The translations under genes and the position numbers were made by a program. 64,000 nucleotides of DNA, taken from Escherichia coli. GTDB taxonomy: Bacteria > Pseudomonadota > Gammaproteobacteria > Enterobacterales > Enterobacteriaceae. The stretch is from assembly GCF_044324875.1 (NCBI RefSeq), contig NZ_CP172185.1; one strand, given 5' to 3'. Shown here one piece after another: positions 1-23,389 of this stretch. A model generated the notes under the pieces. The model ran no database searches. It was not told where the DNA came from and saw only the letters and a list, made by a program, of their open reading frames with translations. Position 1 is the first letter of the stretch; each line of letters starts with the position of its first letter.

Positions 1-1725
<1,725 letters not shown>

Positions 1726-1793
1726 GTCTGAATCCGGCCGACCCAAAATTTTCCCCCAAGCTTCTCCCGGTATCTTTTAAGAGTATTGATTAC

Positions 1794-4599: not shown

Positions 4600-4610
4600 G
4601 GGCCAATCCA

Positions 4611-4967: not shown

Positions 4968-4980
4968 GTGTTGTATCTAA

Positions 4981-5646: not shown

Positions 5647-5787
5647 CGAAGCCATAGCATAGAATTTTTAATGGCATTATGATCAGGACATAAAGGACTT
5701 CATGCAGGGAAAAAATATCCCAAAAGAAACTGGTCATGTCAGCACACCAAAGGATCCTCGCCGGATCCTTTGGTTTTTCTCAGCCAC

Positions 5788-5830
5788 AATCGCTTAACGT
5801 GAGTTTTCGTTCCACTGAGCGTCAGACCCC
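5788..5830. other. 43-bp segment nearly identical to the region just upstream of the ColE1/pMB1-type replication origin RNAs
   Basis: AATCGCTTAACGTGAGTTTTCGTTCCACTGAGCGTCAGACCCC differs at one position from the pBR322/pUC sequence AATCCCTTAACGTGAGTTTTCGTTCCACTGAGCGTCAGACCCC as I recall it; flanks diverge. Confidence 0.4.
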
Positions 5831-5905
5831 TATAAACACCTTAGTGAAGTCATCCTCGCAGGTAAGGCAACACATCCGTAAGGTATTTGGCCAAATCAAA
5901 TACAA

Positions 5906-6901
5906 CTAGATTGACTCGCGGGGAAGCCAGGGACTCTCAACTATCACTTTATCCCGGTGGGTGTCACCATTGATAATGTGCAGTGTACTTAAGCGCCCAA
6001 TTTCATAATGCGGTAGCTGGACCGTGGATAATGGGGGTAAAAATAAGTTTCCAATGCCTACAAGATTGTCATAGCCAAGAACGGCAATATCCTGTGGGAT
6101 TCTGATACCCTGCGTTAACAATGTTTGATACACCATAAATGCAATACGATCGTTACCACAGATGACCGAATCAAATCGCGGTTTCCCCTGTTCGATATGC
6201 GCCAGCAACATCTCCGGAATATCTCGGTAGTGCTCATCGCCGAATTGCATATAGCAGTGCTCAAGCGTATCAGGATCGATACTGGCTTCCCTGCAGGCGC
6301 GATCAAGCCCACGACGACGACGACGCGTCGCCAGATGGTTGACGGGTAAATGCAGGCATAGAGGGCGGCTGTATCCTGCTGCCAGCAGTGCCTGTACGGC
6401 CGTATACTGGCCATGTTCATCGTCAGGTATATAGCTGGCAACCGGCTCTCCCTTGTTCTCGCAGTTGGCCAGAACGCAAGGAAGCTCCAGTAACCGGGGA
6501 GGAATACTGACTTCACGCAGCCCCATGGTAGTAAAAATGATCCCCCCGGGTCGATGGGCGAGCAGCAGGTCGACAATATCGTCAGGATTATCATCGGTAA
6601 ACATATTCACCACAAAGCTGTTCCAGCCATACGCCCGCGCGGTTTCTTCAATAGACAGCGTGATTTCTACTGAAAAAGGAGTGGTGACCGTATCCAGCGC
6701 AAGCACACCAATCGTTTTGTTCCGGGTGCCAACACGACGAATCTGCTGGGCAGAAAGGTCTGGCACATAATTTAACTGCGTGATCGCCTCCTGCACCCGA
6801 GCCAGAGTCTCAGGCTTTACGCGTTTCGGGTCATTCAGCACCCGTGAAACCGTCATGAGCGATACATTGGCCAGTTTGGCCACATCCTTTAAAGACGCCA
6901 T
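5906..6901 (-). CDS. fosR: LacI/GalR-family repressor, CscR-like (FosR-like), divergent from the transporter operon
   Basis: 331 aa; N-terminal HTH MASLKDVAKLANVSLMTVSRVLN; strong similarity across its length to the E. coli sucrose repressor CscR from memory; gene symbol by recalled synteny with the fos locus. Confidence 0.75.
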   Translation of the reverse strand: MASLKDVAKLANVSLMTVSRVLNDPKRVKPETLARVQEAITQLNYVPDLSAQQIRRVGTRNKTIGVLALDTVTTPFSVEITLSIEETARAYGWNSFVVNMFTDDNPDDIVDLLLAHRPGGIIFTTMGLREVSIPPRLLELPCVLANCENKGEPVASYIPDDEHGQYTAVQALLAAGYSRPLCLHLPVNHLATRRRRRGLDRACREASIDPDTLEHCYMQFGDEHYRDIPEMLLAHIEQGKPRFDSVICGNDRIAFMVYQTLLTQGIRIPQDIAVLGYDNLVGIGNLFLPPLSTVQLPHYEIGRLSTLHIINGDTHRDKVIVESPWLPRESI

Positions 6902-7033
6902 AGTTTTCCATTATCTGAATGCATACACCCGGTAAGGTGTTGTGAGCAAATGCGAATGCCCTATTCTAGGCACGGACACCCAGGGTTATGCAGACCACTC
7001 TGATAAATTTGAGCTAGATCTCAACATTTCAAT

Positions 7034-7045
7034 GTTAACGTTAAC
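7034..7045. promoter_or_regulatory. Candidate LacI-family operator, perfect 12-bp palindrome centred on CG
   Basis: GTTAACGTTAAC is its own reverse complement; about 100 bp upstream of the transporter start, in the divergent fosR/fosT intergenic region. Confidence 0.4.
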
Positions 7046-7095
7046 TTTTGTGATTAACATCGACAAACAAATCAAAATCGAGTGTCCCCCCAAAA

Positions 7096-7109
7096 TGATA
7101 ACGTTACCA
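7096..7109. promoter_or_regulatory. Candidate LacI-family operator (TGATAACGTTACCA)
   Basis: Near-palindrome fitting the TGnAAnCGnTTnCA pattern of LacI/GalR operators; about 35 bp upstream of the transporter ATG at 7142. Confidence 0.4.
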
Positions 7110-7141
7110 TATTAGCATATCCTTCTTACGAGATTACGTAG

Positions 7142-8380
7142 ATGAAAAAACGGCCTACTCGAAGTTACATGCTGCTCAGCGCTCTGCTGTTCTTTTTCTT
7201 TGTGACCTGGTCCTCATCAAGTTCACTGCTCTCAATCTGGCTTCACCAGGAAGTGGGGCTAAAAGCATCGGAAACCGGCATTATTTTTTCAGTATTATCC
7301 GTCTCCGCGCTCTTCGCGCAGGTCTGTTATGGCTTTATTCAGGACCGACTTGGTCTGCGCAAACATTTGTTATGGTTTATCACCGCGTTGTTGATCCTCT
7401 CCGGCCCGGCTTATCTGCTTTTTAGTTATTTGCTGAGCGTTAATATTCTGCTGGGCAGCGTATTCGGGGGCTTATTTATCGGGCTGACGTTTAATGGGGG
7501 TATCGGCGTTCTGGAGTCCTATACCGAGCGCGTCGCGCGTCAAAGTACCTTTGAGTTTGGGCGGGCACGCATGTGGGGGTCTCTGGGCTGGGCAGTTGCC
7601 ACGTTTTTTGCCGGGTTACTGTTTAATATCAACCCTGACCTTAACTTCCTGGTGGCTTCATGCTCAGGGTTAATCTTCTTCTGCCTCCTGGCCCGATTAA
7701 AGGTGGCCGCGCCGGCAAGCATGGAGAAACTCGAAATTGGCGCTAAAAAAGTTTCTCTGGAAGACGCCCTGCGTCTGCTTACTCTGCCGCGCTTCTGGGC
7801 ACTGATATTCTTCGTGGTCGGAACCTGCATTTACGGCGTATACGATCAGCAATTCCCGGTCTATTTCTCATCACAGTTCCCGACATTACGCGAAGGGAAC
7901 GAGATGTTTGGCTATTTAAACTCTTTCCAGGTCTTTCTCGAGGCCGCAGGTATGTTTTGTGCGCCGTGGCTGGTTAATCGCATTGGTGCTAAAAATGGTC
8001 TGATATTCGCAGGAATGGTGATGGCGCTGCGCATGATTACTTCAGGGCTGGTGGAAGGCCCCCTGCTTATCTCCATTACCAAACTGCTTCACGCGGTCGA
8101 ACTGCCAATATTGTTAGTCGCCATATTTAAATACAACAGTCTGAATTTCGACAAACGTCTCTCCTCCACCATTTATCTGGTGGGATTTGCCTGCACCAGC
8201 TCCGTCATTGGTACCGTATTGTCCCCGCTGGCAGGCTTTAGCTATGAGAGATTTGGCTTCGCCCAATCCTATCTGATCATGGGCATCATGGTGTTCAGCA
8301 CCACGTTTATTTCCATTTTCCTTTTGCGCTCAACTAAATCCTCATCTGAGCCATCTTTTCTGCAGCAAAAAGCTGTGTAA
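7142..8380 (+). CDS. fosT: Oligosaccharide:H+ symporter, MFS (LacY/CscB-like)
   Basis: 412 aa, 12-TM hydrophobic profile, similar to CscB sucrose permease (…FQVFLEA…, …KLLHAVELP…); first gene of a tightly spaced operon. Confidence 0.8.
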   Translation: MKKRPTRSYMLLSALLFFFFVTWSSSSSLLSIWLHQEVGLKASETGIIFSVLSVSALFAQVCYGFIQDRLGLRKHLLWFITALLILSGPAYLLFSYLLSVNILLGSVFGGLFIGLTFNGGIGVLESYTERVARQSTFEFGRARMWGSLGWAVATFFAGLLFNINPDLNFLVASCSGLIFFCLLARLKVAAPASMEKLEIGAKKVSLEDALRLLTLPRFWALIFFVVGTCIYGVYDQQFPVYFSSQFPTLREGNEMFGYLNSFQVFLEAAGMFCAPWLVNRIGAKNGLIFAGMVMALRMITSGLVEGPLLISITKLLHAVELPILLVAIFKYNSLNFDKRLSSTIYLVGFACTSSVIGTVLSPLAGFSYERFGFAQSYLIMGIMVFSTTFISIFLLRSTKSSSEPSFLQQKAV

Positions 8381-8399
8381 TGTACTGAGAATAAAGACG

Positions 8400-9833
8400 A
8401 TGACATCCTTATTAGAACAGGCTGAACAGGTGCTTGAAAAAGCACAATCCGGGATTAATCCGCGCTGGTATCCGCGCTATCACCTCGCCCCTCGCGCAGG
8501 CTGGATGAATGATCCTAATGGCCTGGTATGGTTTGACGGCTGGTATCACGCCTTTTATCAACACCATCCCTACTCCCCGAAATGGGGTCCGATGCACTGG
8601 GGGCACGCCCGAAGCAAAGATCTGGTGCATTGGGAACATTTGCCCGTCGCGCTAGCGCCGGAAGGCCCGGCGGACAAAGACGGCTGTTTCTCAGGTTCCG
8701 CCGTGGTGGACGGCGATACGCTGGCGCTCATCTATACCGGACATAAATTTCACGGCCCGTCGGACACTGACGACAACCTCTACCAGGTGCAGTGTCTGGC
8801 GACCAGTCGTGACGGCATCCATTTTGAACGGCACGGCAAGGTGATTGATACACCGCCCGGACTGCATCACTTTCGCGATCCGAAGGTGTGGCGCGAAGGT
8901 GAGTTCTGGTACATGGTTGTCGGTTCCCGCGTGGAAAATACCGGTCAGGTGCGCCTGTACCGTTCCACCGATCTCCGCGAATGGCATGACGAAGGTATTT
9001 TCGCCGAGGCTGATGAAGGCAAGGGCTTTATGTGGGAATGCCCGGATTTCTTCCCCCTGGGAGAGAAGCGTGTCCTGATGTTCTCGCCGCAGGGCATGGC
9101 GGCGGAAGGGTATCACTATCGCAACCTGTTCCAGAGCGGTTATTTACTTGGGGACTGGCAGCCAGGTCAACCGTTCACCCACAGCGGACAATTTACTGAG
9201 CTGGACCACGGCCACGACTTTTATGCCCCGCAGAGTTTCCTGACCCCGGATGGCCGACGCATTGTCATCGGGTGGCTGGATATGTGGGAATCATCGATGC
9301 CCGAACAGCAGGATGGCTGGGCCGGAATGCTCTCGCTTCCTCGCGAATTAAGCCTTGTCGATGGTCGTGTGAGAATGAAACCTGCTGCCGAAGTGACCGC
9401 GCTGCGTGGCAGCTATTATCCCACGCCCGTCCGCTGTCTGAACAATCAGAACGTCCTTGTCGCGGCAAATGCCGACGCGGTCGAAGTTCAGTTGGCATGG
9501 GATTTGAGCGCATCGACGGCTGAACAGTTTGGTATCGCGTTGGGCGACGGGTTGAGAATTTACGTCGATGATCAGGCTGGGCGTCTGGTGGTGGAGCGCC
9601 GCTATCCGGAATATTCGCTGGAAGGCACTCGCAGTATTCCGCTTCCAGCAGACAGCGTTCTGTCACTGCGAATTTTTATTGACCGCTCATCGGTGGAAGT
9701 TTTTGTTAACGATGGTGACGCTTGCTTAAGCAGTCGTATTTATCCGCAGCCGGGCGAGCGTGATATTTCATTGTTTGCAAATCTGGGGAAGGCCTCATTA
9801 TACGATGCGGGATACTGGTCTTTAGATAAATAA
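8400..9833 (+). CDS. fosGH1: GH32 beta-fructofuranosidase / sucrose-6-phosphate hydrolase-like, no signal peptide (cytoplasmic)
   Basis: 477 aa with GH32 motifs WMNDPNGL, FRDPKV and WECPD; 19 bp after fosT. Confidence 0.8.
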   Translation: MTSLLEQAEQVLEKAQSGINPRWYPRYHLAPRAGWMNDPNGLVWFDGWYHAFYQHHPYSPKWGPMHWGHARSKDLVHWEHLPVALAPEGPADKDGCFSGSAVVDGDTLALIYTGHKFHGPSDTDDNLYQVQCLATSRDGIHFERHGKVIDTPPGLHHFRDPKVWREGEFWYMVVGSRVENTGQVRLYRSTDLREWHDEGIFAEADEGKGFMWECPDFFPLGEKRVLMFSPQGMAAEGYHYRNLFQSGYLLGDWQPGQPFTHSGQFTELDHGHDFYAPQSFLTPDGRRIVIGWLDMWESSMPEQQDGWAGMLSLPRELSLVDGRVRMKPAAEVTALRGSYYPTPVRCLNNQNVLVAANADAVEVQLAWDLSASTAEQFGIALGDGLRIYVDDQAGRLVVERRYPEYSLEGTRSIPLPADSVLSLRIFIDRSSVEVFVNDGDACLSSRIYPQPGERDISLFANLGKASLYDAGYWSLDK

Positions 9834-9925
9834 TTCTCCGTTCCGACCTGTTTCTTGCAGGGTGAGTTTTTATTTCTGCCAGTCTCTGGCTGGCATGTTA
9901 TTGTCTGGAATAATGAGAGAGCAAA

Positions 9926-11191
9926 ATGGATGAAAGCGTAATACCTCAAAATTGCATTACCTCGAAAGATAAAAATATATTTGTTCCAGGAAAACAGATG
10001 CTGGCATTAATGGTGACATTAGCAGCATTTCCTGCCATTGCTGAAGACGTTACAGGAAACTATCAAAGCTATTTTCAGGATGAATCAGACACCAACGGTA
10101 CGAGTGTTTCATTAGCCAATCAAGGCAATGAAAAATCATCCCTTAGCGCTTCATCTTCTCCGGTTGCTGCAGGTCAAAAACCTGAACTCACGACCTCGTC
10201 AAAGCCAGTGACGTTATCGGCACCAATGGAGAATAAGAAAACTGCAGTAGAAAAACGTCCTAAAGGGGATAACCCTAAAGATGTCAGTCTGTTGCGTTTA
10301 AGGCAGGAAGATCCGCCGGTTCACTGGAACAGTATTGGTCGTAACATGGAAGTGGGTAGCTTGCATGGGAACATTGGATCTCAGATAGAAATTGACGATG
10401 TTCGCTGGAGCAATAATAAGAAAAACAGCGGCAAGTTTAAACTCGCCACCATTCAGGCTTTTTTAAGGCACGATGAATTGCCTAACTGGTATTTCGGTTT
10501 CTGGAATGCCAGAGAAGACAGTTATAAAGGACAGTTCAGTAATCAGGACTATAAAGGCACCAATACCATCAATGAATTTTTTGTGGGCCATATTTTCGAA
10601 ACCTGGCGGGGTAATATCGGTACGGAAGTCATGGTCGGCTCCGAAACGGCAACTAAACGCTGGAAAAACCGGTTCAAAGTCTGGCAGGACCTGCGACTGT
10701 CCAACAAATGGAGCCTGGCCGGATACGCGTATGGCGAGTATCAGCCTCAGGGGAACGAACCGGGGAATGGCGATCTGGAGCAGTACATTTTCGAAATTGA
10801 GCCAGCCATTCAATACCGCGTGAATCCGGATCTCGGACTCTATTTGCGGCCCTATTATTACCATAACCGCCAGGAGCGTCAGAGCTGGGGCGACATTGTA
10901 GAAGAAGAATGGAAAGTCACGGCCGGGCTCTGGCGAAACTGGTATCCATTATTAACCTCCCTGTATGTTGGATTTGGCCAGGACAAAATAGATAACGCCA
11001 GCAATGCCAGCGAAGTTTTCTATGACGGCCGTTATAAGTTTATCGGTGGAACGCTGAGTTATCCGGTATTTGGTGAGGTGCGATTATATGGTGAATTCAA
11101 GGCACAATTTACGAAAGAAACCGGACTTTGGACATCAACCGGTCACTCATGGAATCCGTTTACCGTGGTTGGCGTGAATTATAACTTCTGA
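9926..11191 (+). CDS. fosX: Predicted outer-membrane beta-barrel protein (putative oligosaccharide channel); start probably internal near 9995
   Basis: Signal-peptide-like MLALMVTLAAFPAIA, Ser/Thr-rich linker, alternating-hydrophobic beta-strand pattern, C-terminal ...VGVNYNF with terminal Phe; paralogous to the ORF at 12712..13725. Confidence 0.6.
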   Translation: MDESVIPQNCITSKDKNIFVPGKQMLALMVTLAAFPAIAEDVTGNYQSYFQDESDTNGTSVSLANQGNEKSSLSASSSPVAAGQKPELTTSSKPVTLSAPMENKKTAVEKRPKGDNPKDVSLLRLRQEDPPVHWNSIGRNMEVGSLHGNIGSQIEIDDVRWSNNKKNSGKFKLATIQAFLRHDELPNWYFGFWNAREDSYKGQFSNQDYKGTNTINEFFVGHIFETWRGNIGTEVMVGSETATKRWKNRFKVWQDLRLSNKWSLAGYAYGEYQPQGNEPGNGDLEQYIFEIEPAIQYRVNPDLGLYLRPYYYHNRQERQSWGDIVEEEWKVTAGLWRNWYPLLTSLYVGFGQDKIDNASNASEVFYDGRYKFIGGTLSYPVFGEVRLYGEFKAQFTKETGLWTSTGHSWNPFTVVGVNYNF

Positions 11192-11205
11192 TATTCAGGT
11201 GTAGC

Positions 11206-12699
11206 ATGAAAAAATTAATAGTTGCGGCATCTTTCGCTCTGCTTGCGCTTTCGCTCGGCAATAACCCTGCCTGGTCACAGCCTTCGAAAGAGACATTACA
11301 GAATAAAAGCATCACCCATATTAATGGCTTTTTTCCGAGGGTTGAAGGTTCATTCGTGGGCGACCCTATGCCCGTTTTTAACGATGGCAAATTTGATATT
11401 TATTATCTTAATGATGTCCGAGGCGGCAGCGATCTGGGGGTACATGCTTTTCATCTCTTGTCGAGTGCCAACTTGTATGATTATCAGAACCATTCGGAAG
11501 TGATCCCCTACGTTAACGACGTTGACGATCCTGAACTGTTATTGGGAACCGGTTCGATTATTAAAGTCGGCGATACCTGGCATGCCTGGTACACCGCACA
11601 CAATGAAAATGTGTTCCCGGTTGAGTCTGTTATGCACGCGACCAGTAAGGACCGCCTTCACTGGGTGAAACACCCGCAGGACACCCTGTTACCCGGCGGT
11701 AACTATCGGGGTAATGATTTCAGGGACCCTCACGTCGTTTGGGTTGAGGAAAAGAAAGAATACTGGATGTTAATTACTACGCGCAGTAATGGTCGTGGGG
11801 TTATTGCCCGATACAGTTCAACGGATTTAAAGCACTGGGAAGATCGCGGCGTATTTTTTGATAACGACACCATCACCAGCAATGCCAACCTCGAATGCCC
11901 GACACTGGTTTACTTCAACGGACGCTGGTATCTCAGCTTTAGCGACCAATGGCCGTTACGCCTGACACAATACCGGGTTGCGGACAATCCGGAGGGGCCG
12001 TGGCGGAAACTGGACAATTATGTGGTCGACGGCTCAGGTTTTTACGCGGGTAAACTGGTTCTCAAAAACGATCGGCTGTTTGTTTTCGGCTGGATCCCGA
12101 CGAAAGCCGGTAACCGTGACAGCGGCAACATTGATTGGGCAGGGAATCTGGTTGCTCATGAGCTCACCGCAGATGCCCAGGGCCAGCTCAACAGCATCCT
12201 CCCCCAGGAGCTTCAGAAGGTCATCAGTGAGAATCCTGGCCCGGAAACCACCTTGACGAGCACTAAGACACTCAAAACGGACACGTCGTTCGGCCCCTTA
12301 CAGTCGGCGCTGTACCCGGCCTTGCCTGAGCGCGGTGAGTTGAGTGCAACCATCGATGTTCCTTCTGCCGGAATGGTGATGAGCTTTGGTCTGACCGACG
12401 ACAGAGTCAGTGATGCGATGCTGAACGTTGTGTTCAATAAGAGCAAAGGAAAAGTCTATTTTTTCAACGCGCCGCTAGCGTCGATTCATCAGGCTAACGC
12501 GGAATCCTGGGTGGACATTCCGATCGGGGAAAAAATTGAGTTACGCGTTCTCATACAAAACTCAATTGCTGTCTTTTATATAAACAACAAAGTGGCATTC
12601 AGTACCCGGATGTATTCCATGCAGGAGAAACCGTGGAGTATTAGCCTGCCTCAAAACGACCATTTTCACGCGACGTTGAAAATAAAAGAAATGATTTAA
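11206..12699 (+). CDS. fosGH2: GH32 beta-fructofuranosidase (levanase/inulinase-like) with N-terminal signal peptide (exported)
   Basis: 497 aa; signal peptide MKKLIVAASFALLALSLGNNPAWSQP; GH32 catalytic motifs (FRDPHV, ECP); 14 bp after the preceding gene. Confidence 0.8.
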   Translation: MKKLIVAASFALLALSLGNNPAWSQPSKETLQNKSITHINGFFPRVEGSFVGDPMPVFNDGKFDIYYLNDVRGGSDLGVHAFHLLSSANLYDYQNHSEVIPYVNDVDDPELLLGTGSIIKVGDTWHAWYTAHNENVFPVESVMHATSKDRLHWVKHPQDTLLPGGNYRGNDFRDPHVVWVEEKKEYWMLITTRSNGRGVIARYSSTDLKHWEDRGVFFDNDTITSNANLECPTLVYFNGRWYLSFSDQWPLRLTQYRVADNPEGPWRKLDNYVVDGSGFYAGKLVLKNDRLFVFGWIPTKAGNRDSGNIDWAGNLVAHELTADAQGQLNSILPQELQKVISENPGPETTLTSTKTLKTDTSFGPLQSALYPALPERGELSATIDVPSAGMVMSFGLTDDRVSDAMLNVVFNKSKGKVYFFNAPLASIHQANAESWVDIPIGEKIELRVLIQNSIAVFYINNKVAFSTRMYSMQEKPWSISLPQNDHFHATLKIKEMI

Positions 12700-12711
12700 C
12701 GGGATATTATT

Positions 12712-13725
12712 ATGAAAAACTATCATGCCCTGTCTGTTATTTTTACTCTTATGTTACCCGCGCTGGCGAATGCGAGCATGAGCATCATGAAGGATCCGTC
12801 TGGAAAGGTTATCGCCGTGGACCCTTGGTCATATCTTGATGAAGATGTTATGTGGACCTCAGCCCGCTCCTCCAATCCTGCCGGTGGCCGCGTTCATGGC
12901 CAACTGAAAATGAAATATGCCATTGAGGATAATAACTGGCGTAACAGCCATTTCCACAACGGGAATGATTCGCTGACGTTTGTACAAGGTGTGATGCGGC
13001 ACGATGCGTTACCCGGTTGGTATCTGGCTTTCTCTGAGGGCAGAACCACTAACTATAACGGGACGTGGGAGGATCAGTCTTACCTCAGCCAAAACCAGTG
13101 GACTCAGTTGATCATCGGCCATGAATATTTTTACAAGCGTCTGCGCTATGGCTGGGATGTGATGGGAGGAAGCGCCTCAATCGAAGACCGCTGGCAAGGC
13201 CGCGTTAAGTTCTTTACCGATCTTCGGGTTACGGATAATTTCTCATTCTTTAACTACCTGTATCAGCAGATCGATCACCGGCGCAGCGGTGGGTCGCAAA
13301 ACGACCGTGACGTGCGTTCATTTCAGATTGAGCCAGGCGTGCAATACATTATTAATAACAACACCGGTGTCTGGTTCCGCCAGCAGTTCGCATCTGCCAT
13401 TTTAGACAGGGCGCAGTGGGGCGATATCGACGAAAAAAGCTGGACCACGTCAGTCGGCGTCTGGCGAAACTGGGGGAAGTTATCCACAACGCTCAGCGGC
13501 GGTTATGGTCATTATAAGAAATACAATGCGCAACCTGAGGATGGCGAAGTCTTTCAGAATACCCGCAATCGCTTCCTGAAGGTATCGGCAAATTATCCTT
13601 TGACCTCTCGTTTTACCGTGTCCGGAGAAGTTACTGGTTCGTTGATCAAACAGAACGGAAGTTGGGTCACTAACGGTGAGGCCATTACCACTGAGTATAA
13701 GCTGATGCTGGATTATAACTTTTAA
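12712..13725 (+). CDS. fosY: Predicted outer-membrane beta-barrel protein, paralogue of fosX
   Basis: 337 aa; signal peptide MKNYHALSVIFTLMLPALANA; shared motifs with the 9926 ORF (HDxLPxWY, WGDIxExxWxxxxGxWRNW); C-terminal ...LMLDYNF. Confidence 0.6.
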   Translation: MKNYHALSVIFTLMLPALANASMSIMKDPSGKVIAVDPWSYLDEDVMWTSARSSNPAGGRVHGQLKMKYAIEDNNWRNSHFHNGNDSLTFVQGVMRHDALPGWYLAFSEGRTTNYNGTWEDQSYLSQNQWTQLIIGHEYFYKRLRYGWDVMGGSASIEDRWQGRVKFFTDLRVTDNFSFFNYLYQQIDHRRSGGSQNDRDVRSFQIEPGVQYIINNNTGVWFRQQFASAILDRAQWGDIDEKSWTTSVGVWRNWGKLSTTLSGGYGHYKKYNAQPEDGEVFQNTRNRFLKVSANYPLTSRFTVSGEVTGSLIKQNGSWVTNGEAITTEYKLMLDYNF

Positions 13726-13838
13726 ACCGTACGCTGGATAATCCATGCCACCTGAACACGCTGAAGCGTTAGTAAAAATAGTGACCTTACCGCAGGTCAC
13801 GTTTAAAAAAACAAGTTAATTATTATTAAGGAAATATC

Positions 13839-14801
13839 ATGAATATCTGGACTCTTGGCGATGCTGTTGTTGATCTTCTACCCCTTACAGATATGCAATT
13901 TCGTGCTTGTGCAGGAGGTGCGCCATTTAATGTTGCGATAGGTACTGCACAATTGAAATGTCGTACCGGCTTTATAGGTCGCGTAGGGGATGACGATTTT
14001 GGCCATTTCCTGAGAAAAACTCTCGAAGATTCAGGAGTTTCTACACAATGTATCCAAATGGATAAATATCATCGTACAAGTACAGTACTGGTTTCTCTTA
14101 AAGATCAGGGAGAACGTGGTTTTACATTTCTTACGAACCCTTCAGCCGACCAATTTCTAACACAAGATGCCCTTCCAGCTTTTAGTGATGATATCCTGCA
14201 TTTTTGTTCACTTGCGCTGGTTGCTGCAGATTGCCGCACGACTTTGACTAAAGCAGTCCAGGAAGTCATTGACCACGGTGGACTTATCAGCTTTGATGTT
14301 AATTTACGAGACCAAATGTGGCGTGATAAGGAAGAAATGTTTGCGACAGTGAGTCAATTCGCTGAAAAAGCCGATATCCTTAAACTCTCTGAAGAAGAGT
14401 GGTACTGGTTAATGGGTACACATGATTATACAGAGGCGTTAGAAGCACTCAAAACCCATCCTGCCAGATTAAAAGTGGTCACCTTTGGTGCGAGAGGTTC
14501 ATTGGTATTATGGCAAGATATGGTGATACATTTCAGAGGATTTAATGTTAAAAGTATTGACACAACAGGCGCTGGAGATGCTTTTATGGCTGGGTTACTT
14601 GCCAGCATCGCCAATAAAGGTTTGCCAATGAATTTTCCAGAACTTCAATTAGCAATCACTCAGGCCAGTGCCACCGGAGCGCTCGCAACTACCAAAAAAG
14701 GTGCACTTACCGCCCTTCCTGATACAGCCGCACTGGAAACGTTCATTAATCATTTTCCATTACCGGGCTATGAGATCCTTGGAGCAACCGCTACGGTGTA
14801 A
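13839..14801 (+). CDS. fosK: Fructokinase, PfkB/ribokinase family (CscK-like)
   Basis: 320 aa; N-terminal GD motif (MNIWTLGDAVVDLL) and C-terminal TTGAGDAF anion-hole motif; visibly more AT-rich than upstream genes. Confidence 0.8.
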   Translation: MNIWTLGDAVVDLLPLTDMQFRACAGGAPFNVAIGTAQLKCRTGFIGRVGDDDFGHFLRKTLEDSGVSTQCIQMDKYHRTSTVLVSLKDQGERGFTFLTNPSADQFLTQDALPAFSDDILHFCSLALVAADCRTTLTKAVQEVIDHGGLISFDVNLRDQMWRDKEEMFATVSQFAEKADILKLSEEEWYWLMGTHDYTEALEALKTHPARLKVVTFGARGSLVLWQDMVIHFRGFNVKSIDTTGAGDAFMAGLLASIANKGLPMNFPELQLAITQASATGALATTKKGALTALPDTAALETFINHFPLPGYEILGATATV

Positions 14802-14909
14802 CAACTTTTCATGCTGTATGGTGTAGGAATATAGCAAACGTATCTTCAATTGTTAGTTATGACCTCTAGAAGTATGAGATATCTTTTGTAGATAATCATG
14901 GCTGTGTAT

Positions 14910-14936
14910 GGGCAGCCTTATACTGCCCCTTTTTCT
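14910..14936 (+). terminator. Rho-independent terminator downstream of the fos-like operon
   Basis: GGGCAG-ccttatact-CTGCCC hairpin followed by CTTTTTC. Confidence 0.5.
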
Positions 14937-15081
14937 ATTACCTTAAGAAAGATAAGTACAGTTTGCTTTCCTGGAGATTAATGCATGCTCTGGATAGCAA
15001 TCCTCAACTATCAGCAGAAAGTAGATAAAATTTCAGGGTGGCCCTATAAAAATCATTAGATGCGTTTCTGACGTTACTTAG

Positions 15082-15393
<312 letters not shown>

Positions 15394-15454
15394 TTACTGA
15401 TTTAGTGTATGATGGTGATTTTAAGTAAGCGACTCGTCAGAACCGTATTGATAT

Positions 15455-17026
15455 TTACTGAGAGCTCAGATCAACTTTCCAGGGCAACAGATCGCGTACC
15501 CGGTTTGCCGGCCAGTCCTGGATATGTTCAATGACGTAACGCAGCCACTTTTCTGGCTCCACATTGTTCAGACGGCATGTGCCGATCAGCGAGTACAACA
15601 CCGCCGCATGTTCACCACCGCTGTCGGAACCCGCGAACATCCAGTTTTTCCGGCCTACGGCCACTCCCCGTAAGGCGTTCTCTGCGATGTTGTTGTCGAT
15701 TTCCACCCAGCCATTACTGCAGTACACGTTCAGTGCATCCCACTGTTTCAGCAGGTATGCGAACGCTTTTGCCGTATCTGAGTGACGCGACAGTGTTTTC
15801 ATCTGTTGCTGTATCCAGTCATACAGTGACTGCATCAGTGGCGCGGCTCTGGCTTTTCTTGCCGCCAGACGCTGTTCTGCTGAACAGCCCCGGACCTCTG
15901 CCTCGATGGCATACAGTTCACCGATACGCTGCAGGGCTTCCGTGGTGATGTAGGTGGGCGCTCTTGCATGCACATCGTGGATTTTTCTCCGGGCATGAGC
16001 CATACACGCGGCTTCCGTTATTCTGCCGGATTCGTATAACGCCCGGTAACCACCGTAAGCATCGGCCTGAAGCACACCGCTGTAACCGGCCAGGTGATTT
16101 TGTGGATGGATACCTTTCCGGTCCGGACTGTACGCGAACCAGACCGCCGGGGGCATCTGTGAACCGGCGTTACGGTCATCACGGACGTAGACCCACAGCC
16201 GGGCTGTCCGGGTTTTACCGCTGCCCGGCTCCTGGACCGGGACGGGGATATCATCAGCATGGACTTTACCGGGCATCAGCACATACTGGCGCAGGACGTC
16301 ATACAGCGGCTCCAGCAGTTCAGCAACAGCACCTGTCCAGCGCCCCAGTGTGGCACGGCTCAGCTCCACTCCCTGACGACGGTATATTTCTGACTGGCGG
16401 TATAACGGCAGATGGTCTGCATATTTCCCGGTGACAACATGGGCCAGAAGCCCCGCTCCGGCATAACTGCGTGCAATGGGTTTTGAAGGTACTGGTGCCT
16501 GCACGATATGGTCGCACCGGCAACAGGCCTGTTTCGGACGTTGTGTTTCGATAACCTTAAAGGCGCTGCTGATAAGCTCCAGTTGCTCTGACACATCACA
16601 TCCCAGAGAACTGAGTTCACCACCACAGGCAGGACAGCATTCCTCTTCCGGCCGGATAACCCGGGTTTCACGGGGAAGTGAGGCCGGTAACGGTTTACGG
16701 GCTGAAGACTGGCGCAGGGCGGATGGCAGTACCGGGTCATATTGCTCACCCAGCGTTTCCGCCATTTCTTCCTGAAGTGCGCTGATTCGCTCCTGTGCTT
16801 CCTGTATCTGCCGTTCGGTTTTTGCACGAAGTTTTTCTGAGCTTTTACCGAACTGCATACGTTGCAGTTTCGCAACCAGCGCCTTCAGCCGGTTGATTTC
16901 GGAAGCATAAGCCGCCACCCGCTGTGAGAGCAGGCGGTTGTATTCAGCCATCTGGCGGATGGTGTCCTGTTGCGTCTGCAACAGTGCCCGCAGGCGGGCG
17001 TTCTCATGAGCAAGTGAGGTGTCCAT
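15455..17026 (-). CDS. tnpC: IS66-family transposase TnpC
   Basis: 523 aa with N-terminal coiled-coil/leucine-zipper region, CxxC zinc motif and DDE core typical of IS66 transposases. Confidence 0.85.
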
Positions 17027-17045
17027 ATCCTCACTTTACAACGGG

Positions 17046-17393
17046 TTATATGCGGATTCCAGCGCGTTCCGTTCGTTTCGGGTGCTTCCAGTTGATACCT
17101 TCAAGAAGCATGGATAACTGAGCCGGAGTAAGGTGCACCTTGCCGTCACGGGTGACTGGCCAGACGAAGCGGCCCCGCTCCAGGCGTTTGGTGAAGAGGC
17201 ACAGTCCGTCACTGTCAGCCCACAACACTTTTATCTGGTCACCCCGGCGTCCGCGGAAGATGAACAGGTGTCCGGAGAACGGGTCATCCTTCAGGACGTT
17301 CTGAACTTTTGATGCCAGGCCGTTAAAGCCATTTCGCATATCGGTGATACCTGCAACCAGCCAGATACGCGAACCTGCAGGGAGAGATATCAT
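17046..17393 (-). CDS. tnpB: IS66-family Orf2 (TnpB)
   Basis: 115 aa; MISLPAGSRIWLVAGITDMRNGFNGL... is the conserved IS66 Orf2. Confidence 0.85.
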   Translation of the reverse strand: MISLPAGSRIWLVAGITDMRNGFNGLASKVQNVLKDDPFSGHLFIFRGRRGDQIKVLWADSDGLCLFTKRLERGRFVWPVTRDGKVHLTPAQLSMLLEGINWKHPKRTERAGIRI

Positions 17394-18070
17394 CAGTGGC
17401 TGCTCCCTTTTATTTCGCGGATAAGTGTCTGTAATAACGCCGGCGTCAGTTTACCTTTAAGCCTGAGAGTTCCGGCCGGCAGAACCAGCTCACAACACAG
17501 ACTGTCGGACGGTGTATTTATCTGCTCTGGTTCCTGTGCGGGGGCCGGGATTTTATTATCCGGCTCCGGCGTTAACGTCACGGGAAGCAGTGCCGGCATA
17601 TTTTTTCCGGAAGGCAGCAGGCCACCTTTCCGGTATTGATGGCGCCAGTTGAAGAGCAGGTTATCGTTGATTCCGTTTTCCCGGGCGATCTGCGCCACAC
17701 AGGCTCCGGGCTGCAGTGACTGCTCCACTAAGGCGATTTTAAACTCATAAGGGAAGTTGGGCCGCCGGGGACGTTTTTTTACCACGGGGGCTTCGGATAT
17801 AACGGTGCTTTCAGGACGTACGACTGGTACCGTGGAAAATTGTCCGTAAAGGCAGGCATCAAGTTCCTGCTCCGACATGCCTGCGGGCAAAGGCCACGAA
17901 AGGCCAGCTCTCCGAAAGCGCACGAACATACTACAAACTGTTGATTTTGGTACACCCAGGCGACGCCCGGCCACAACCCGGGGTAAATGTTCTTCAAAGT
18001 GAAGACGTAAAGCTTCAGTGATCCAGGTCCGGTGTTTCATACGATAGTGTCCATTAAAAATGATGGACAT
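17393..18070 (-). CDS. tnpA: IS66-family accessory protein (TnpA); true start uncertain, probably internal
   Basis: ORF immediately upstream of and overlapping tnpB (ATGA overlap) in the canonical IS66 arrangement. Confidence 0.6.
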   Translation of the reverse strand: MSIIFNGHYRMKHRTWITEALRLHFEEHLPRVVAGRRLGVPKSTVCSMFVRFRRAGLSWPLPAGMSEQELDACLYGQFSTVPVVRPESTVISEAPVVKKRPRRPNFPYEFKIALVEQSLQPGACVAQIARENGINDNLLFNWRHQYRKGGLLPSGKNMPALLPVTLTPEPDNKIPAPAQEPEQINTPSDSLCCELVLPAGTLRLKGKLTPALLQTLIREIKGSSH

Positions 18071-18790: not shown

Positions 18791-19430
18791 CAAGGTCATC
18801 GGGCATTATCTGAACATAAAACACTATCAGTAAGTTGGAGTCATTACCAACGGTAAATATCCATAAGTGTGGGCTTGCGGAATAAATAGTTTGGTTAAAG
18901 ATAAGGTGGTTTAATACTGCTGAGTATTTTATAGGAGATATGATGTTGTTTTATAAACAAACTAAAAAACATGAAGTTTAATTGATAGGGGACAATGAAA
19001 TCTCCTTTTTAAACTCAATTGCTATGTTGGGTTTATGGGGTTGCTATAAACGGTTTTGAATAAACGCTTTACTATTCTCATGAAAACAGTGTTATGTTGT
19101 TATTTTAACAACCCCGCATTGTTTTTTGATGGGATGGGTATTAAGACTTTAGAGAAACTTTATAAATAAATATATGTATTCAATAGTGGCGAAAATAATA
19201 ACCCATCTTATTATTACATTGTGGAAGTGCTCTTTTTTATTATCGCTCATGTTTTACCTTTCTGTTAAAACATATTCTTTCGGATATGTAAAATGGTAAG
19301 AGATAGTTAATCTACGTATGCATGGGGGCGTTTCATTGCATGGCGTTATAATCTGGCTTGTATATAAAGGCACTATAAGTTTTACTCTTACAGTGCCTTT
19401 ATTTGGCCATGATTTACCCTCTACAATAAA

Positions 19431-21818
19431 TTAATCATTACAGGATAGGTTCATATTCCATTCATAAGCCTCAATGCCGTTAATCAGTAGTTGACGACTT
19501 TCTCCCTGAGGAATTATCACTTTCAATGTTTCCCATGCAGGGCGATAATCTCCATGAGTGTTTATTCTTAACTCAATTGTAGTGGCTGTGCAGTCCAGCT
19601 CCCATTCAAGCCACAGAGCATTACCTTCAGTATATCCCCAAGTTTCGCCATCATCTTCAAACAGAAGTCCGGTGGATTTACCCGTTCCTTTAATTGGGAA
19701 TAATTTCAATTTACGATGATTATCTTCCGCTTCACTCACGTATGTTATACGTTCACTAAGAGGAATACCTGCACCTGCACGTACTAATAATGGTAGTTTT
19801 TCCAGTGGCGCGTCGATTGTTATCCATTGACCACCACAGAACCATTCGCCATTGTAAAAGTCGTACCATCCTGTTTTGTTGTCGGGTAACCATACTCGTC
19901 GTTGTCGTTGCCCTGCTTCCACGACACTTGCAACCAGAATATCGCGTCCCAGCATAAAATCATCACATTCTTCAAATGTCTGAACATCGTGCTCATGATC
20001 AAGGAAGGTTGGACGTAATATTGGCTCATCATCGGCATGTGCCTGCCACAATAATGTATATAAATAAGGCATAAGACGATAACGTAACTCAATTGCACTA
20101 CGAATCGCGGGTGTTACTTCCGGATACATCCATGGTTCATTGACAGTATGATCATCATTCCACGAGTGGATCGTAAATCGGGGGTGCATAACACCGTTCT
20201 GAACCCAACGAACAAATAATTCTGGATCAGGCTTATCACCAGAAAAACCACCGACATCATGACCAATGTTATACAATCCTGAGAGGCTCATTCCCAGCCC
20301 CATGCGGGTGTTGTATCGAAGGGTATCCCAGTTAGTTCGGTTGTCCCCACTCCATGTCTGAACATAACGCTGCAATCCGGCGCATCCAGAGCGGGAAATC
20401 AAATATGGTCGTTTGTTCGGTGCAAATTTTTGCTGTGCTTCCATAGATGCTCTGCACATTAAAAGAGGCATTACTGGCCGAATGTGTTTAATGGCGATTT
20501 CTTTGCCAAAACCATGACAGCGCGCTTCCCCATCCCATACTTCAAACTCATTGTTATCATTCCAGGTGGAATCAATTCCCATTTCAAGTAGTTGTGTGGT
20601 TACACCTTCCTGCCACCATGCGACTGTTTGTGGGTTCGTAAAGTCCAGATGAGAACCCTCATCATCCCAGAAGCTGGAGCGTTCCGGGACGTTGTATTCA
20701 GAGTCACGAATAAAGAGCTCTTGTTCTGCTACTTCGTTATAGCGAGGATGATCCTGCAATAAACATGGTTTTATATTAGCGGCCAGGTGTATCCCTGCAT
20801 TATGAAACTCCTGACTCATCATTTTAGGGTGTGGAACTTTGTCGTAATTCCAGTTGAATACGTAGCGTTTACCATTAATAGAAGTATAACCAGAAGATAG
20901 CTGGAAAGAATCACATGGAATAGCATGTTCCTTACAAAGACGAATAAACTGCATCAATTGATTCTGAGCATCCGGTGCATCTGTATAGTGCATCGTGGAA
21001 CCGCTGTACCCAAGACTCCATTTTGGACCGAAGAGTGTTTTCCCCGTCAAACGAACAAAGGCTTTGGTGATATCAAGTACACATCTGCCAGTGAAAAGAT
21101 AATAATCAATATCTCCCGCCTCAGCCTGCCAACGGCGGTAAGTTGTATGATAATTATCTATTTCATTACCTAAATCCAGCCAACTATTGCTGAGGTTATC
21201 ATAAAATAATCCAAAGCTAATATCGCTACGGTGAGTAATTGTAAATGGAATATGTTTATAAAGAGGGTCTGTACTTACTGCATTATATCCCATTGCGTCC
21301 AGGTTCCGCATTTCATAGCGTTTTCCTGTGCGTTGCAGATCCCCGGATTTATCACCAAGTCCATAAAAACGCTCGTCATTACGTCGACTTTGATAGTGTG
21401 CAACACCATCACCATGAGCGTTTATCAGATAAGCACTGGTAGGGCGATCATTAACAAGTTCCTGCCACTGACCAGCATTATCCTTATAATGCCATTCAAG
21501 CCATAAAGGCTTGTGAATAATTACGCGTAATGAACTGGTCGTGATTGTCAGTAATTCATCATTCTGCTCCATGTTCCAGGTCGGCAGTGAAAAACCGCTA
21601 ATATCTTCGCGATGACGCCCTTCCCACGGGACATCCTTTTCCGGAGCAATGCTCCAGGTTCGGTCCAGCGACAAAACCCCCTTCCGTTTTAATAGAACCC
21701 GGAACATATTTTCTTCGAGTATATACAGGCAAAGAGAATGCTGACCATCAACTAATAGCTCTATATGATGGGCTGACTGATTTTGTAGTTTCCAGTTTTT
21801 TAATGTTTTCATCTCCAC
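19431..21818 (-). CDS. GH31 alpha-glucosidase / alpha-xylosidase family glycoside hydrolase
   Basis: 795 aa; GH31 nucleophile-region motif GIDSTWNDNNEF (variant of WIDMNE); AT-rich codon usage; followed on the minus strand by a hairpin (19366..19400). Confidence 0.75.
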   Translation of the reverse strand: MEMKTLKNWKLQNQSAHHIELLVDGQHSLCLYILEENMFRVLLKRKGVLSLDRTWSIAPEKDVPWEGRHREDISGFSLPTWNMEQNDELLTITTSSLRVIIHKPLWLEWHYKDNAGQWQELVNDRPTSAYLINAHGDGVAHYQSRRNDERFYGLGDKSGDLQRTGKRYEMRNLDAMGYNAVSTDPLYKHIPFTITHRSDISFGLFYDNLSNSWLDLGNEIDNYHTTYRRWQAEAGDIDYYLFTGRCVLDITKAFVRLTGKTLFGPKWSLGYSGSTMHYTDAPDAQNQLMQFIRLCKEHAIPCDSFQLSSGYTSINGKRYVFNWNYDKVPHPKMMSQEFHNAGIHLAANIKPCLLQDHPRYNEVAEQELFIRDSEYNVPERSSFWDDEGSHLDFTNPQTVAWWQEGVTTQLLEMGIDSTWNDNNEFEVWDGEARCHGFGKEIAIKHIRPVMPLLMCRASMEAQQKFAPNKRPYLISRSGCAGLQRYVQTWSGDNRTNWDTLRYNTRMGLGMSLSGLYNIGHDVGGFSGDKPDPELFVRWVQNGVMHPRFTIHSWNDDHTVNEPWMYPEVTPAIRSAIELRYRLMPYLYTLLWQAHADDEPILRPTFLDHEHDVQTFEECDDFMLGRDILVASVVEAGQRQRRVWLPDNKTGWYDFYNGEWFCGGQWITIDAPLEKLPLLVRAGAGIPLSERITYVSEAEDNHRKLKLFPIKGTGKSTGLLFEDDGETWGYTEGNALWLEWELDCTATTIELRINTHGDYRPAWETLKVIIPQGESRQLLINGIEAYEWNMNLSCND

Positions 21819-21826
21819 ATACTCCC

Positions 21827-23128: not shown

Positions 23129-23389
23129 AATCACCCCACCGGATGTAATAAATGATCGAGCGACAACGCAGCTCGGGGTTGCCACATCCCACTTTACCTT
23201 TCGGCTTAATACTTAAACCGGAACTACTCATTCACAATAAAAGAGGGGGGCGATGAAAAAAAGTTGGTATTGTGCACGTTTTTTCATAAGTAGTTCATAT
23301 AAATTCTAAAAATAGTCAGAAGTCCTTGCAGTCAGGCTATTCCATCCCATGAGAATTTTTTCATTTTGAAATTAGAGATAGATCACAAT

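Follow-up and report, generated by a model that had tools for sequence, protein, structure and literature searches.

A fructokinase gene of apparently separate ancestry closes the fos operon of Escherichia coli

The studied window, a 64,000-nt stretch of an Escherichia coli genome (contig NZ_CP172185.1), contains seven genes (Table 1) whose set and order match the fos locus, with a divergent fosR followed by fosT-fosE1-fosX-fosE2-fosY-fosK, as seen from the ORFs, the annotation of E. coli BEN2908 and PMC3325963; the latter is also the source of the gene roles, including that of FosR as a repressor. The fos locus is an operon for the utilisation of short-chain fructooligosaccharides (scFOS), described from the genomic island AGI-3 of BEN2908 (Chouikha 2006; Schouler 2009; Porcheron 2011, 2012). 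The locus in the window and that of BEN2908 are 100.0% identical over 9601 bases, and 100% identity over 9.6 kb is also observed in 36 other complete E. coli genomes. By its sequence, the region 5906–14801 is the published fos locus itself and not merely “fos-like”, as it had been called in the sequence-only reading.

Table 1. Features of the fos locus and its right-hand flank, with GC content and third-position GC (GC3).
Feature	Position	Strand	GC	GC3	Basis
fosR, LacI-family repressor, divergently transcribed	5906..6901	-	0.515	0.536	ORF; BEN2908 annotation as LacI family regulator; PMC3325963
fosT, LacY-like MFS oligosaccharide transporter	7142..8380	+	0.495	0.586	NCBIfam NF007077 and TIGR00882, both above cut-off
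fosE1 (fosGH1), cytoplasmic-type GH32 beta-fructofuranosidase	8400..9833	+	0.556	0.600	TIGR01322 scrB_fam, 476.9 bits (cut-off 356)
fosX, OmpG-type porin	9926..11191	+	0.456	0.472	PF16946 on orthologues
fosE2 (fosGH2), second GH32 enzyme, N-terminal signal-like sequence	11206..12699	+	0.493	0.572	translation; PF00251 on orthologues
fosY, second OmpG-type porin	12712..13725	+	0.492	0.577	91–92% aa identity to Yersinia/Citrobacter loci
fosY-fosK spacer, 113 bp, conserved RBS region	13726..13838	+	0.381		junction alignment, fold
fosK, PfkB-family fructokinase, 320 aa	13839..14801	+	0.437	0.321	PF00294; NF006957 as best NCBIfam match; PDB 5ey7
fosK 3' untranslated tail	14802..14966	+	0.358		terminator scan, alignments
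Terminator-like hairpin with T-run	14910-14928	+			terminator scan
IS5/IS1182-family transposase fragment, right end of 9.55-kb plasmid-shared unit	15229..15378	-			BEN2908 annotation, mapped

The genomic setting is shared as well. In BEN2908 the identical gene set adjoins tRNA-Sec and an integrase according to the annotation, and in the window tRNA-SeC is found at 27796–27890, as in a selC-associated island, with an integrase-sized ORF at 26312–27496; thus, the seven genes, their order and the tRNA-Sec/integrase neighbourhood are the same, and the sequences of the two loci show no differences. The difference lies downstream of fos, where the window has an IS66-family element (15455–18070) and BEN2908 has IS1. 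Other AT-rich genes of the island, with GC3 of 0.33–0.37, are located at 19431–24460. A 9.55-kb unit (5831–15379) occurs on IncHI1 and other plasmids with 99.7–99.8% identity, the plasmid matches spanning positions 32–9580 of the query. As for regulation, PMC3325963 credits Porcheron 2011 with FosR operators and a CRP site between fosR and fosT; since the sequence is identical to that of BEN2908, both are implied, and would be expected, in the window.

The last gene, fosK, has been assigned as a fructokinase (PMC3325963). Based on the literature and homology, its product is an ATP-dependent PfkB fructokinase acting on intracellular fructose released by hydrolysis of imported short-chain fructooligosaccharides. 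The PfkB domain PF00294 is found in the database protein identical to FosK, the alignment with the fructokinase of Vibrio cholerae (PDB 5EY7) covers residues 2–303 (E = 8e-77), and the Salmonella aminoimidazole riboside kinase (PDB 1TYY), another PfkB-family protein, is also homologous over the full length (E = 1e-57). By these alignments both are only distant relatives of FosK, sharing with it the DTTGAGDA motif, and the substrate specificity of FosK is taken from the literature. In an alignment of 28 sequences, G26 and G27 of the GG dipeptide region and D241-T-T-G-A-G-D247 (DTxGAGD with the catalytic Asp) are invariant. The “fructokinase” equivalog NF006957 is the best NCBIfam match, with a score of 345.8 bits, below the curated cut-off of 450, and the RefSeq names for FosK are “aminoimidazole riboside kinase” or “PfkB family carbohydrate kinase”.

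The sequence-only reading had described fosK as visibly AT-rich compared to its neighbours, and indeed we observe GC content of 43.7% vs. 45.6–55.6%, and GC3 of 0.321 vs. 0.47–0.60; the AT-rich string quoted there is found in fosK at 13926–13961, and the quoted GC-rich string, in a GH32 gene at 8462–8500. Its description of the GH32 and transporter genes as GC-rich clearly applies only to fosE1, the most GC-rich gene of the locus, while the GC content of the transporter gene matches the window average (0.497). It had also proposed that a difference within about 3% would speak against AT-richness of fosK: the difference is 5.5–11.9 points for fosY, fosE2, fosT, fosE1 and fosR, and only 1.9 points for fosX, whose GC3, however, is 15 points above that of fosK. 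GC1 (0.564) and GC2 (0.427) of fosK are similar to those of the neighbouring genes, therefore the GC deficit resides at synonymous sites. Among the 43 long ORFs of the window, fosK has the lowest GC3. Compared with the 27 ORFs located on the core side of selC, whose GC3 averages 0.563 (sd 0.059), it lies 4.1 standard deviations lower (z = –4.1), and its GC3 counts differ from those of the other six fos genes (chi2 = 63.6, P = 1.5e-15). An index of codon-usage similarity, with the core-side ORFs as reference, is likewise lowest in the locus for fosK (z = –2.7).

Chance, that is, low GC within the normal gene-to-gene scatter, or an artefact of amino acid composition could be suggested by fosX, which is also below the operon average, and by the AT-rich island genes mentioned above. 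We reject this explanation and regard its probability as practically negligible, as only GC3 is shifted while GC1 and GC2 are normal, the GC3 statistics are extreme (see the z and P values above), and the compositional step coincides with an independently obtained divergence breakpoint, described below. A separate candidate was fosX as a second foreign part, given its GC3 of 0.472; it was rejected, as fosX GC3 is moderately low in the other seven-gene loci too (0.405–0.526) and the fosX tree agrees with that of the locus (264/300 replicates).

The seven-gene order R / T-E1-X-E2-Y-K is also present in Yersinia intermedia (L008), Citrobacter braakii (L010) and C. werkmanii (L011). These loci resemble the window in gene order and in the proteins from FosR to FosY (75–96% identity), but not in fosK, which has GC3 of 0.50–0.60 (0.546, 0.603 and 0.495, respectively), encodes 316 residues vs. 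320, and is 70–72% identical at the amino acid level, with the C-terminal tail and the downstream sequence unrelated to those of the window. For example, between the window and L010 the identity is 89% for FosR, 96% for FosT, 90% for FosE1, 82% for FosX, 87% for FosE2, 91% for FosY and 70% for FosK, while between L008 and L010 FosK (81%) is in line with FosR (81%), FosE1 (85%) and FosE2 (84%). The same is seen at the nucleotide level: window vs. L010, dN is 0.209 in fosK and 0.025–0.099 in the other fos genes, dS being saturated in fosK and 0.59–1.04 in the others; L008 vs. L010, fosK (dN 0.113, dS 1.04) is concordant with the other genes. The dN excess of fosK relative to the GC-type loci is 2- to 8-fold. 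An AT-rich fosK, with GC3 of 0.31–0.33, is found in closer loci, L002 (Enterobacter), L004 (Klebsiella oxytoca-type) and L006. Moreover, one fos-type locus, L091, is AT-rich throughout (GC3 of 0.355 in fosX, 0.341 in fosE2, 0.385 in fosY and 0.279 in fosK), with flanks of 0.55 GC.

The position of the step was mapped by the maximum chi-square method. The breakpoint falls at 13726/13727, at the first base of the spacer, with none of 200 permutations reaching the observed value; divergence rises from 0.13–0.15 on its left side to 0.33 on its right, approximately doubling directly after the fosY stop codon, and the sliding-window identity plot has a step at the same place. At the fosY stop codon the step in composition and the step in divergence fall together, and fosY appears to be the last gene sharing the history of the locus. 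Still, AT-type and GC-type loci agree well in the RBS region and over ~60 nt at the start of fosK, so that the left junction is known only within ~170 bp; the conserved start could mean that crossing-over actually took place within fosK, or be due to selection acting at the translation start. On the right, homology to L008 and L010 is lost at ~14774, and the 3' tail (14802–14966) is conserved with the AT-type loci L002, L004 and L006, and not with the GC-type loci; it seems to mark the right-hand part of a replaced block, whose right end is at ~14774–14966.

The operon gaps are, in order, 19, 92, 14, 12 and 113 bp, so the statement that fosK follows the largest one is correct. Its use as a sign of splicing does not stand, as a similar gap is present in loci with GC-normal fosK: of five further seven-gene loci that were measured, four have it at 106–115 bp, L008 and L010 among them, and the spacer is shorter in a sixth, C. 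werkmanii. Therefore we rejected the 113-bp gap as a recombination scar. Within the spacer there is a hairpin with a 7-bp stem at 13781–13800, with no T-run on the plus strand, the fold of the spacer is not better than that of shuffled sequence (z = –1.3), and no promoter-like site is seen on the plus strand within 13726–13838.

Phylogenetic trees were constructed by neighbour-joining on Kimura distances with few taxa, support being counted out of 300 replicates. The FosR+T+E1 tree (outgroup L009) and the FosX+E2+Y tree (outgroup L091) have the same topology, (L008,((L010,L011),E. coli-type)), each in 294/300 replicates. In contrast, the FosK tree places L008, L010 and L011 together with the E. 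coli-type clade outside (272/300), and in the 26-taxon FosK tree L008, L010, L011, L009 and fructokinases of several other genera exclude the E. coli-type clade (291/300); the locus topology is recovered for FosK in 0–2 of 300 replicates. The E. coli-type FosK is on a long branch, and long-branch attraction to the outgroup may be a source of this placement. The tree incongruence, with its bootstrap support, the dN excess and saturated dS of fosK, and the coincident steps in composition and divergence bear out the part of the sequence-only reading that ascribed different histories to parts of the locus, and the ancestry of fosK seems to differ from that of its six neighbours.

One may ask whether fosK could have changed in place, as a vertical orthologue that drifted or was selected towards AT-rich codons along with faster protein evolution; possible reasons are throttled translation of the last gene, attraction of H-NS or relaxed constraint. 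In favour of this, AT-type and GC-type loci share a conserved gap, RBS region and opening ~60 nt of fosK, FosK ranks with the faster-evolving fos proteins in comparisons of GC-type loci too (81%), and GC3 is held at 0.31–0.33 across four diverged loci. However, GC3 would have to fall from ~0.55 to 0.32 in a single gene of a co-transcribed operon, with a sharp limit at the fosY stop and no known mutational cause, while normal GC3 is retained in orthologues that serve the same purpose in this operon, hence AT-rich codons are not required by the function. The FosK distances are at odds with the locus topology, the E. coli-type clade falls outside fructokinases of several other genera, and the differing L004 and L006 alleles (see below) indicate that distinct AT-rich alleles are in circulation. 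Overall, we consider change in place very improbable.

In our opinion, the data are probably best explained by replacement of the block comprising fosK and its terminator (~13726–14966), in a complete operon, by an allele of a homologous AT-rich locus as yet unsampled. The sequence-only reading had suggested that the locus was assembled from parts; the mixed histories hold, but a one-gene replacement in an already assembled seven-gene operon fits better than original assembly, since the same order is found in Yersinia and Citrobacter with composition-normal fosK. The seven-gene operon would have been complete before the event, which would have taken place after the split of the E. coli-type from the Citrobacter-type loci and before the radiation into E. 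coli, Enterobacter and Klebsiella. The left end of the replaced block would be the fosY stop codon or, alternatively, a point within the opening ~60 nt of fosK, and the block would take in fosK together with the terminator. The likely mechanism is homologous recombination at the conserved left side, with the right end of the exchange beyond the operon end.

The direction might be the reverse, with the AT-rich fosK being original and the GC-normal fosK of Yersinia and Citrobacter being the replacement. GC-type fosK indeed appears mobile itself, as FosK of L009 and L010 are 85.6% identical (dS 0.57), while FosR, FosT and FosE1 are 69–84% identical, with dS at least 1.2 or saturated; besides, L091 demonstrates that low GC occurs within the family too. 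On the other hand, both trees of the other six genes nest the E. coli-type loci inside the GC-type ones, with L008 outside (294/300), so the reverse direction requires that fosK was replaced independently at least twice, once in the lineage of L008 and once in that of L010/L011. Moreover, fosK dS among L008, L010 and L011 (0.87–1.04) agrees with the rest of the locus (0.62–1.16), and GC-type fosK matches the composition of its own operon, while AT-type fosK does not. This makes the reverse direction unlikely.

For the replacement of fosK in the E. coli-type lineage, the donor would be a homologous, AT-rich locus. L091 is a plausible kind of donor; as the donor itself it was rejected, its FosK being only 65% identical. 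A search of 5.8 billion proteins yielded no FosK between 73% and 88–89% identity, and blastn of the AT-rich block against PLSDB plasmids gave matches only at ≥95% or at ≤ ~70% identity. In the FosK alignment search of genome contigs, no donor was found among the matches listed, which are mostly distant PfkB kinases; the closest of them is C. werkmanii (70%), the other useful ones being from Providencia (59%) and from an Orbaceae genome (57%).

Exchange of fosK is not limited to this case. L004 and L006 are 97.6% identical over fosR-fosY and 87.6% identical in fosK, with a breakpoint near 14003 and dS of 0.48 in fosK vs. 0.06–0.10 in the other genes. The low fosK dS between L009 and L010, given above, points to another exchange. 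In total, three independent fosK exchanges are observed among the eight loci where fosK is comparable to other fos genes, and fosK seems to act as an exchangeable terminal cassette in fos-type loci. The wider family points in the same direction. Sucrose regulons of the csc and scr types and truncated fos-like loci consist of the same blocks, a LacI repressor, a LacY-like permease, GH32 and a PfkB fructokinase (PMC3325963), but differ from fos in that they lack the OmpG-type porins and the second GH32, with the fructokinase absent or moved; gene orders of the truncated loci are R-T-E1 in Klebsiella, R / T-E1-porin-K in Enterobacter hormaechei (L009) and T-E1-K-porin...R on an E. coli IncK plasmid (L092). 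As the kinase is absent or differently placed in these loci, comparison of gene orders shows it to be a movable module in the fos/csc/scr family.

At the same time, fosK GC3 stays at 0.31–0.33 across four lineages differing by dS of 0.2–0.5. Such steadiness in hosts of 50–55% GC is somewhat surprising and awkward for the replacement explanation. Singleton third-position changes in fosK comprise 39 AT-to-GC vs. 23 GC-to-AT, a weak net drift dominated by the recombinant L006 allele. It seems quite unlikely, if conceivable, that fosK is a recurrent cassette whose AT-rich allele is actively maintained, tuning kinase expression or silencing the operon through recruited H-NS; in that case, the composition of this AT-rich 1.2-kb operon end would be functional as well as historical.

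In the fos literature, setting aside the original J Bacteriol papers (PMC1347334, PMC2612441), we found no mention of the per-gene composition of fos. The locus itself is already known, and mosaicism within an operon is an ordinary, common evolutionary process, so the in-operon gene replacement with a mappable breakpoint would be a clean small example and not a new kind of phenomenon. The locus confers a measured gut-colonisation advantage on E. coli, is carried on resistance plasmids and is now built into engineered conjugative vectors. The kinase gene would be a later, separately acquired module with a poor codon fit to E. coli, which is of modest value for reconstructing how the operon was built up and spread. 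Finally, fosK may be the expression-limiting gene, which would be relevant to re-engineering of the operon.

The terminal fructokinase gene of the fos locus, fosK, is a real ORF and is AT-rich compared with the other fos genes, as the sequence-only reading had claimed (for GC3 against the other six genes, chi2 = 63.6, P = 1.5e-15). Its GC3 is the minimum among the 43 long ORFs of the window and lies 4.1 sd under the mean of a reference set (27 ORFs from the core-genome flank of selC; mean 0.563, sd 0.059). Since GC1 (0.564) and GC2 (0.427) are ordinary, the deficit is restricted to synonymous positions. The sliding-window GC profile has a dip from about 13600 to 15200 covering fosK, and with the core-side ORFs as training set the codon-usage similarity index is the lowest in the locus for fosK (0.583, z = –2.7). 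The two strings quoted as examples of contrasting composition are each present once, at 13926–13961 in fosK and 8462–8500 in the upstream GH32 gene. The description of the upstream genes as GC-rich holds clearly for fosE1, but the transporter gene fosT is at the window mean of 0.497.

Features of the window, with overall (GC) and third-position (GC3) G+C content
Feature	Position	Strand	GC	GC3
fosR	5906-6901	-	0.515	0.536
fosT	7142-8380		0.495	0.586
fosE1	8400-9833		0.556	0.600
fosX	9926-11191		0.456	0.472
Hypervariable segment, N-terminal part of fosX	10050-10330			
fosE2	11206-12699		0.493	0.572
fosY	12712-13725		0.492	0.577
7-bp inverted repeat in fosY-fosK spacer	13781-13800			
fosK (320 aa)	13839-14801	+	0.437	0.321
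AT-rich tail 3' of fosK	14802-14966		0.358	
Terminator-like hairpin and T-run	14910-14928			
IS1-like stretch followed by complete IS66-family element	15380-18070	-		
tnpC (IS66-family)	15455-17026	-		
tnpB (IS66-family)	17046-17393	-		
tnpA (IS66-family)	17393-18070	-		
AT-rich stretch before second sugar module	18800-19400		down to 0.31-0.32	
Second sugar module	19431-24460			
tRNA-SeC	27796-27890			
517-aa ORF, core side of selC	32188-33741		0.412	0.386

FosK is a PfkB-family kinase (Pfam PF00294); its top NCBIfam match is NF006957 "fructokinase" (345.8 bits, under the 450-bit equivalog cut-off), its nearest solved relative is Vibrio cholerae fructokinase 5EY7 (E = 8e-77), and neither the GG nor the DTTGAGD motif varies across 28 aligned homologues.

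The locus is known from island AGI-3, where it has been published as the fos locus and described as a six-gene operon including the MFS transporter FosT and two GH32 hydrolases, with divergent fosR encoding a LacI/GalR repressor (PMC3325963). The 9.6 kb at 5800–15400 are 100% identical to E. coli BEN2908, where the seven fos genes lie in an island adjoining tRNA-Sec and an integrase, and are 100% identical in 36 further complete genomes out of 5,426 E. coli genomes searched. The fos locus itself is thus already known, genomic islands commonly contain mosaic operons, and per-ORF G+C values of AGI-3 may already have been published. Plasmids of E. coli and Klebsiella michiganensis, IncHI1 plasmids among them, also carry the unit 5831–15379 at 99.7–99.8% identity; hence the locus is currently mobile as one piece, fosK included. 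All plasmid copies match precisely this 9.55-kb unit (query positions 32–9580), and its right end is the edge of an IS5-family fragment; the fixed ends and this edge suggest IS-mediated capture.

Directly past the IS5-family fragment, a short stretch from 15380 to about 15420 resembles an IS1 terminal inverted repeat (GGTAATGCTGCCAACTTACTGATTTAGTGTATGATGGTG), and a complete IS66-family element comes next. BEN2908, in contrast, has IS1 where the window has the IS66-family element, so the window belongs to another strain, one that has gained an IS66 insertion. The second sugar module of the same island, beyond the IS66 element, is AT-rich throughout (GC3 0.367 for a GH31 hydrolase, 0.329 for an MFS transporter, 0.345 for a LacI regulator). 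The 517-aa ORF on the core side of selC stands out by its low GC, as its neighbors have GC3 of 0.52–0.65.

In a search of 5.8 billion proteins, FosK relatives form a tight group with 88–100% identity, the next one being at 73%. Along with the window, three seven-gene loci are of the AT-rich, E. coli type: L002 (Enterobacter sp. JBIWA008 chromosome), L004 (its FosK, P0005, assigned by NCBI to Klebsiella oxytoca) and L006, with fosK GC3 of 0.312–0.333. Homologues with 70–73% identity are encoded in seven-gene fos loci of Yersinia intermedia (L008), Citrobacter braakii (L010) and C. werkmanii (L011), where fosK GC3 (0.546, 0.603 and 0.495, respectively) matches that of its own neighbors. The compositional anomaly of fosK therefore tracks the clade, not the function. 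Moderately low GC3 of fosX is found in every seven-gene locus (0.405–0.526), and hence is a property of fosX. The hypervariable segment of fosX encodes a Ser/Thr/Pro/Lys-rich stretch ahead of an OmpG-type barrel; it is 54–65% identical to the Yersinia and Citrobacter loci and 80–88% to L002, L004 and L006, which are elsewhere 94–98% identical. Homologues in the 70–73% range are also encoded in two variant arrangements, L009 from Enterobacter hormaechei (4582–14093; R / T-E1-porin (Porin_8)-K-GH32-MFS, adjoining an integrase) and L092 on the E. coli IncI-gamma/K1 (IncK) conjugative plasmid NZ_CP141751 (7805–14863; T-E1-K-carbohydrate porin...R). Klebsiella loci with R-T-E1 alone have been described (PMC3325963). 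L009 and L092 have common building blocks, with the kinase position different in each.

The divergence of fosK differs from that of the rest of the locus. Amino acid identity of the window is 69.7% for FosK vs. L010 (R 89.4, T 95.6, E1 90.4, X 82.1, E2 86.7, Y 90.8) and 71.6% vs. L008 (R 80.9, T 93.9, E1 85.1, X 74.5, E2 85.3, Y 91.7), while between L008 and L010 FosK (80.7) is unremarkable beside R, E1 and E2 (81.1, 84.5 and 83.9). By the Nei–Gojobori method, fosK of the window and L010 has dN 0.209 and saturated dS, compared to dN 0.025–0.099 and dS 0.59–1.04 for the other six genes; between L008 and L010 the fosK values (dN 0.113, dS 1.04) are inside the range of the other genes. In neighbor-joining trees (the only type built; Kimura distance, 300 bootstraps), both FosR+T+E1, rooted with L009, and FosX+E2+Y, rooted with L091, yield (L008,((L010,L011),E. 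coli-type loci)) in 294/300 replicates. This topology is seen in 0–2/300 replicates for FosK, whose tree groups L008, L010 and L011 and leaves the E. coli-type clade, a long branch, outside (272/300). With 26 taxa, the FosK tree has a clade of L008, L010, L011, L009 and fructokinases of other genera (annotated as Pectobacterium, Rahnella, Aeromonas, Yokenella, Plesiomonas and others) that leaves out E. coli-type FosK in 291/300 replicates.

The divergence step and the tree conflict at fosK bear out the claim that parts of the locus have different histories; the proposed assembly from parts, however, is better described as a later swap, in which fosK would have been replaced as the terminal gene of an already complete operon. 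The six other genes nest the E. coli-type loci among the GC-type ones, and parsimony therefore favors a single replacement, which would have taken place on the branch leading to the E. coli-type clade. The reverse direction, with the GC-type fosK being the replacement, requires at least two replacements and gives no reason why fosK of L008, L010 and L011 should have diverged to an extent in line with their other fos genes.

By maximum chi-square scanning, the breakpoint falls at 13726–13727, the first bases past the fosY stop codon, with divergence of 0.13–0.15 to the left and 0.33 to the right (observed value reached in 0/200 permutations). Nucleotide identity to L008 and L010 is about 82–92% in fosT–fosY, goes down to 61–75% past the fosY stop, and homology ends entirely at about 14774. 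The fosY–fosK spacer (GC 0.381) is weakly conserved between the two types; conservation is strong in the ribosome-binding region and over the first ~60 nt of fosK, which could reflect a crossover within the 5' end of fosK or selection on the initiation region, and the left junction is therefore given as 13726 to about 13900. The fosK tail is conserved among the window, L002, L004 and L006, and not in the GC-type loci; the proposed replaced block as a whole, 13726–14966, has GC 0.421 vs. 0.498 for fosT–fosY. The gap before fosK is indeed the largest in the operon (113 bp vs. 19, 92, 14 and 12 bp), but it is no scar of the replacement: a gap of 106–115 bp is seen in four of the five other seven-gene loci measured, including ones with GC-normal fosK. 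In L002, L004 and L006 it is 111–114 bp. The inverted repeat in this spacer (GTGACCT…AGGTCAC) is perfect, kept in L002 and changed in L004 and L006; as its A-run is upstream on the plus strand, it has a terminator score on the minus strand only.

No donor of the AT-type fosK was found in the 5.8 billion proteins, the listed genome-contig matches, or plasmids. L091 (Logan SRR31200918 contig, 509–5345) carries the fos-type arrangement X-E2-Y-K with GC3 of 0.355, 0.341, 0.385 and 0.279, respectively, in surrounding DNA of 0.55 GC, and this locus in its entirety seems to have been acquired recently from a low-GC source. It is rejected as the donor because its FosK is just 65% identical; still, it shows that low-GC forms of the whole fos locus exist.

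AT-type fosK has GC3 of 0.31–0.33 in four lineages differing by dS 0.2–0.5. Singleton third-position changes in fosK have a weak net flow (39 toward GC vs. 23 toward AT), and in all other six genes the net flow is toward AT. One explanation is that most of the divergence between alleles arose in the donor lineage and that there were several separate entries, as the exchange between L004 and L006 suggests; the alternative is that something maintains the composition. L004 and L006 are 97.6% identical in fosR–fosY and 87.6% in fosK (both alleles AT-rich), with a breakpoint near window position 14003 and dS of 0.48 in fosK vs. 0.06–0.10 elsewhere. Similarly, FosK of L009 and L010 is 85.6% identical (dS 0.57), compared to 69–84% for FosR, FosT and FosE1 (dS at least 1.2 or saturated). 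With the main event, this makes three fosK exchanges among the eight loci comparable for fosK and other fos genes. Because of its terminal position, fosK can be replaced with just one homologous crossover within the operon, and low-GC fos loci could provide the homologous allele through ordinary recombination.
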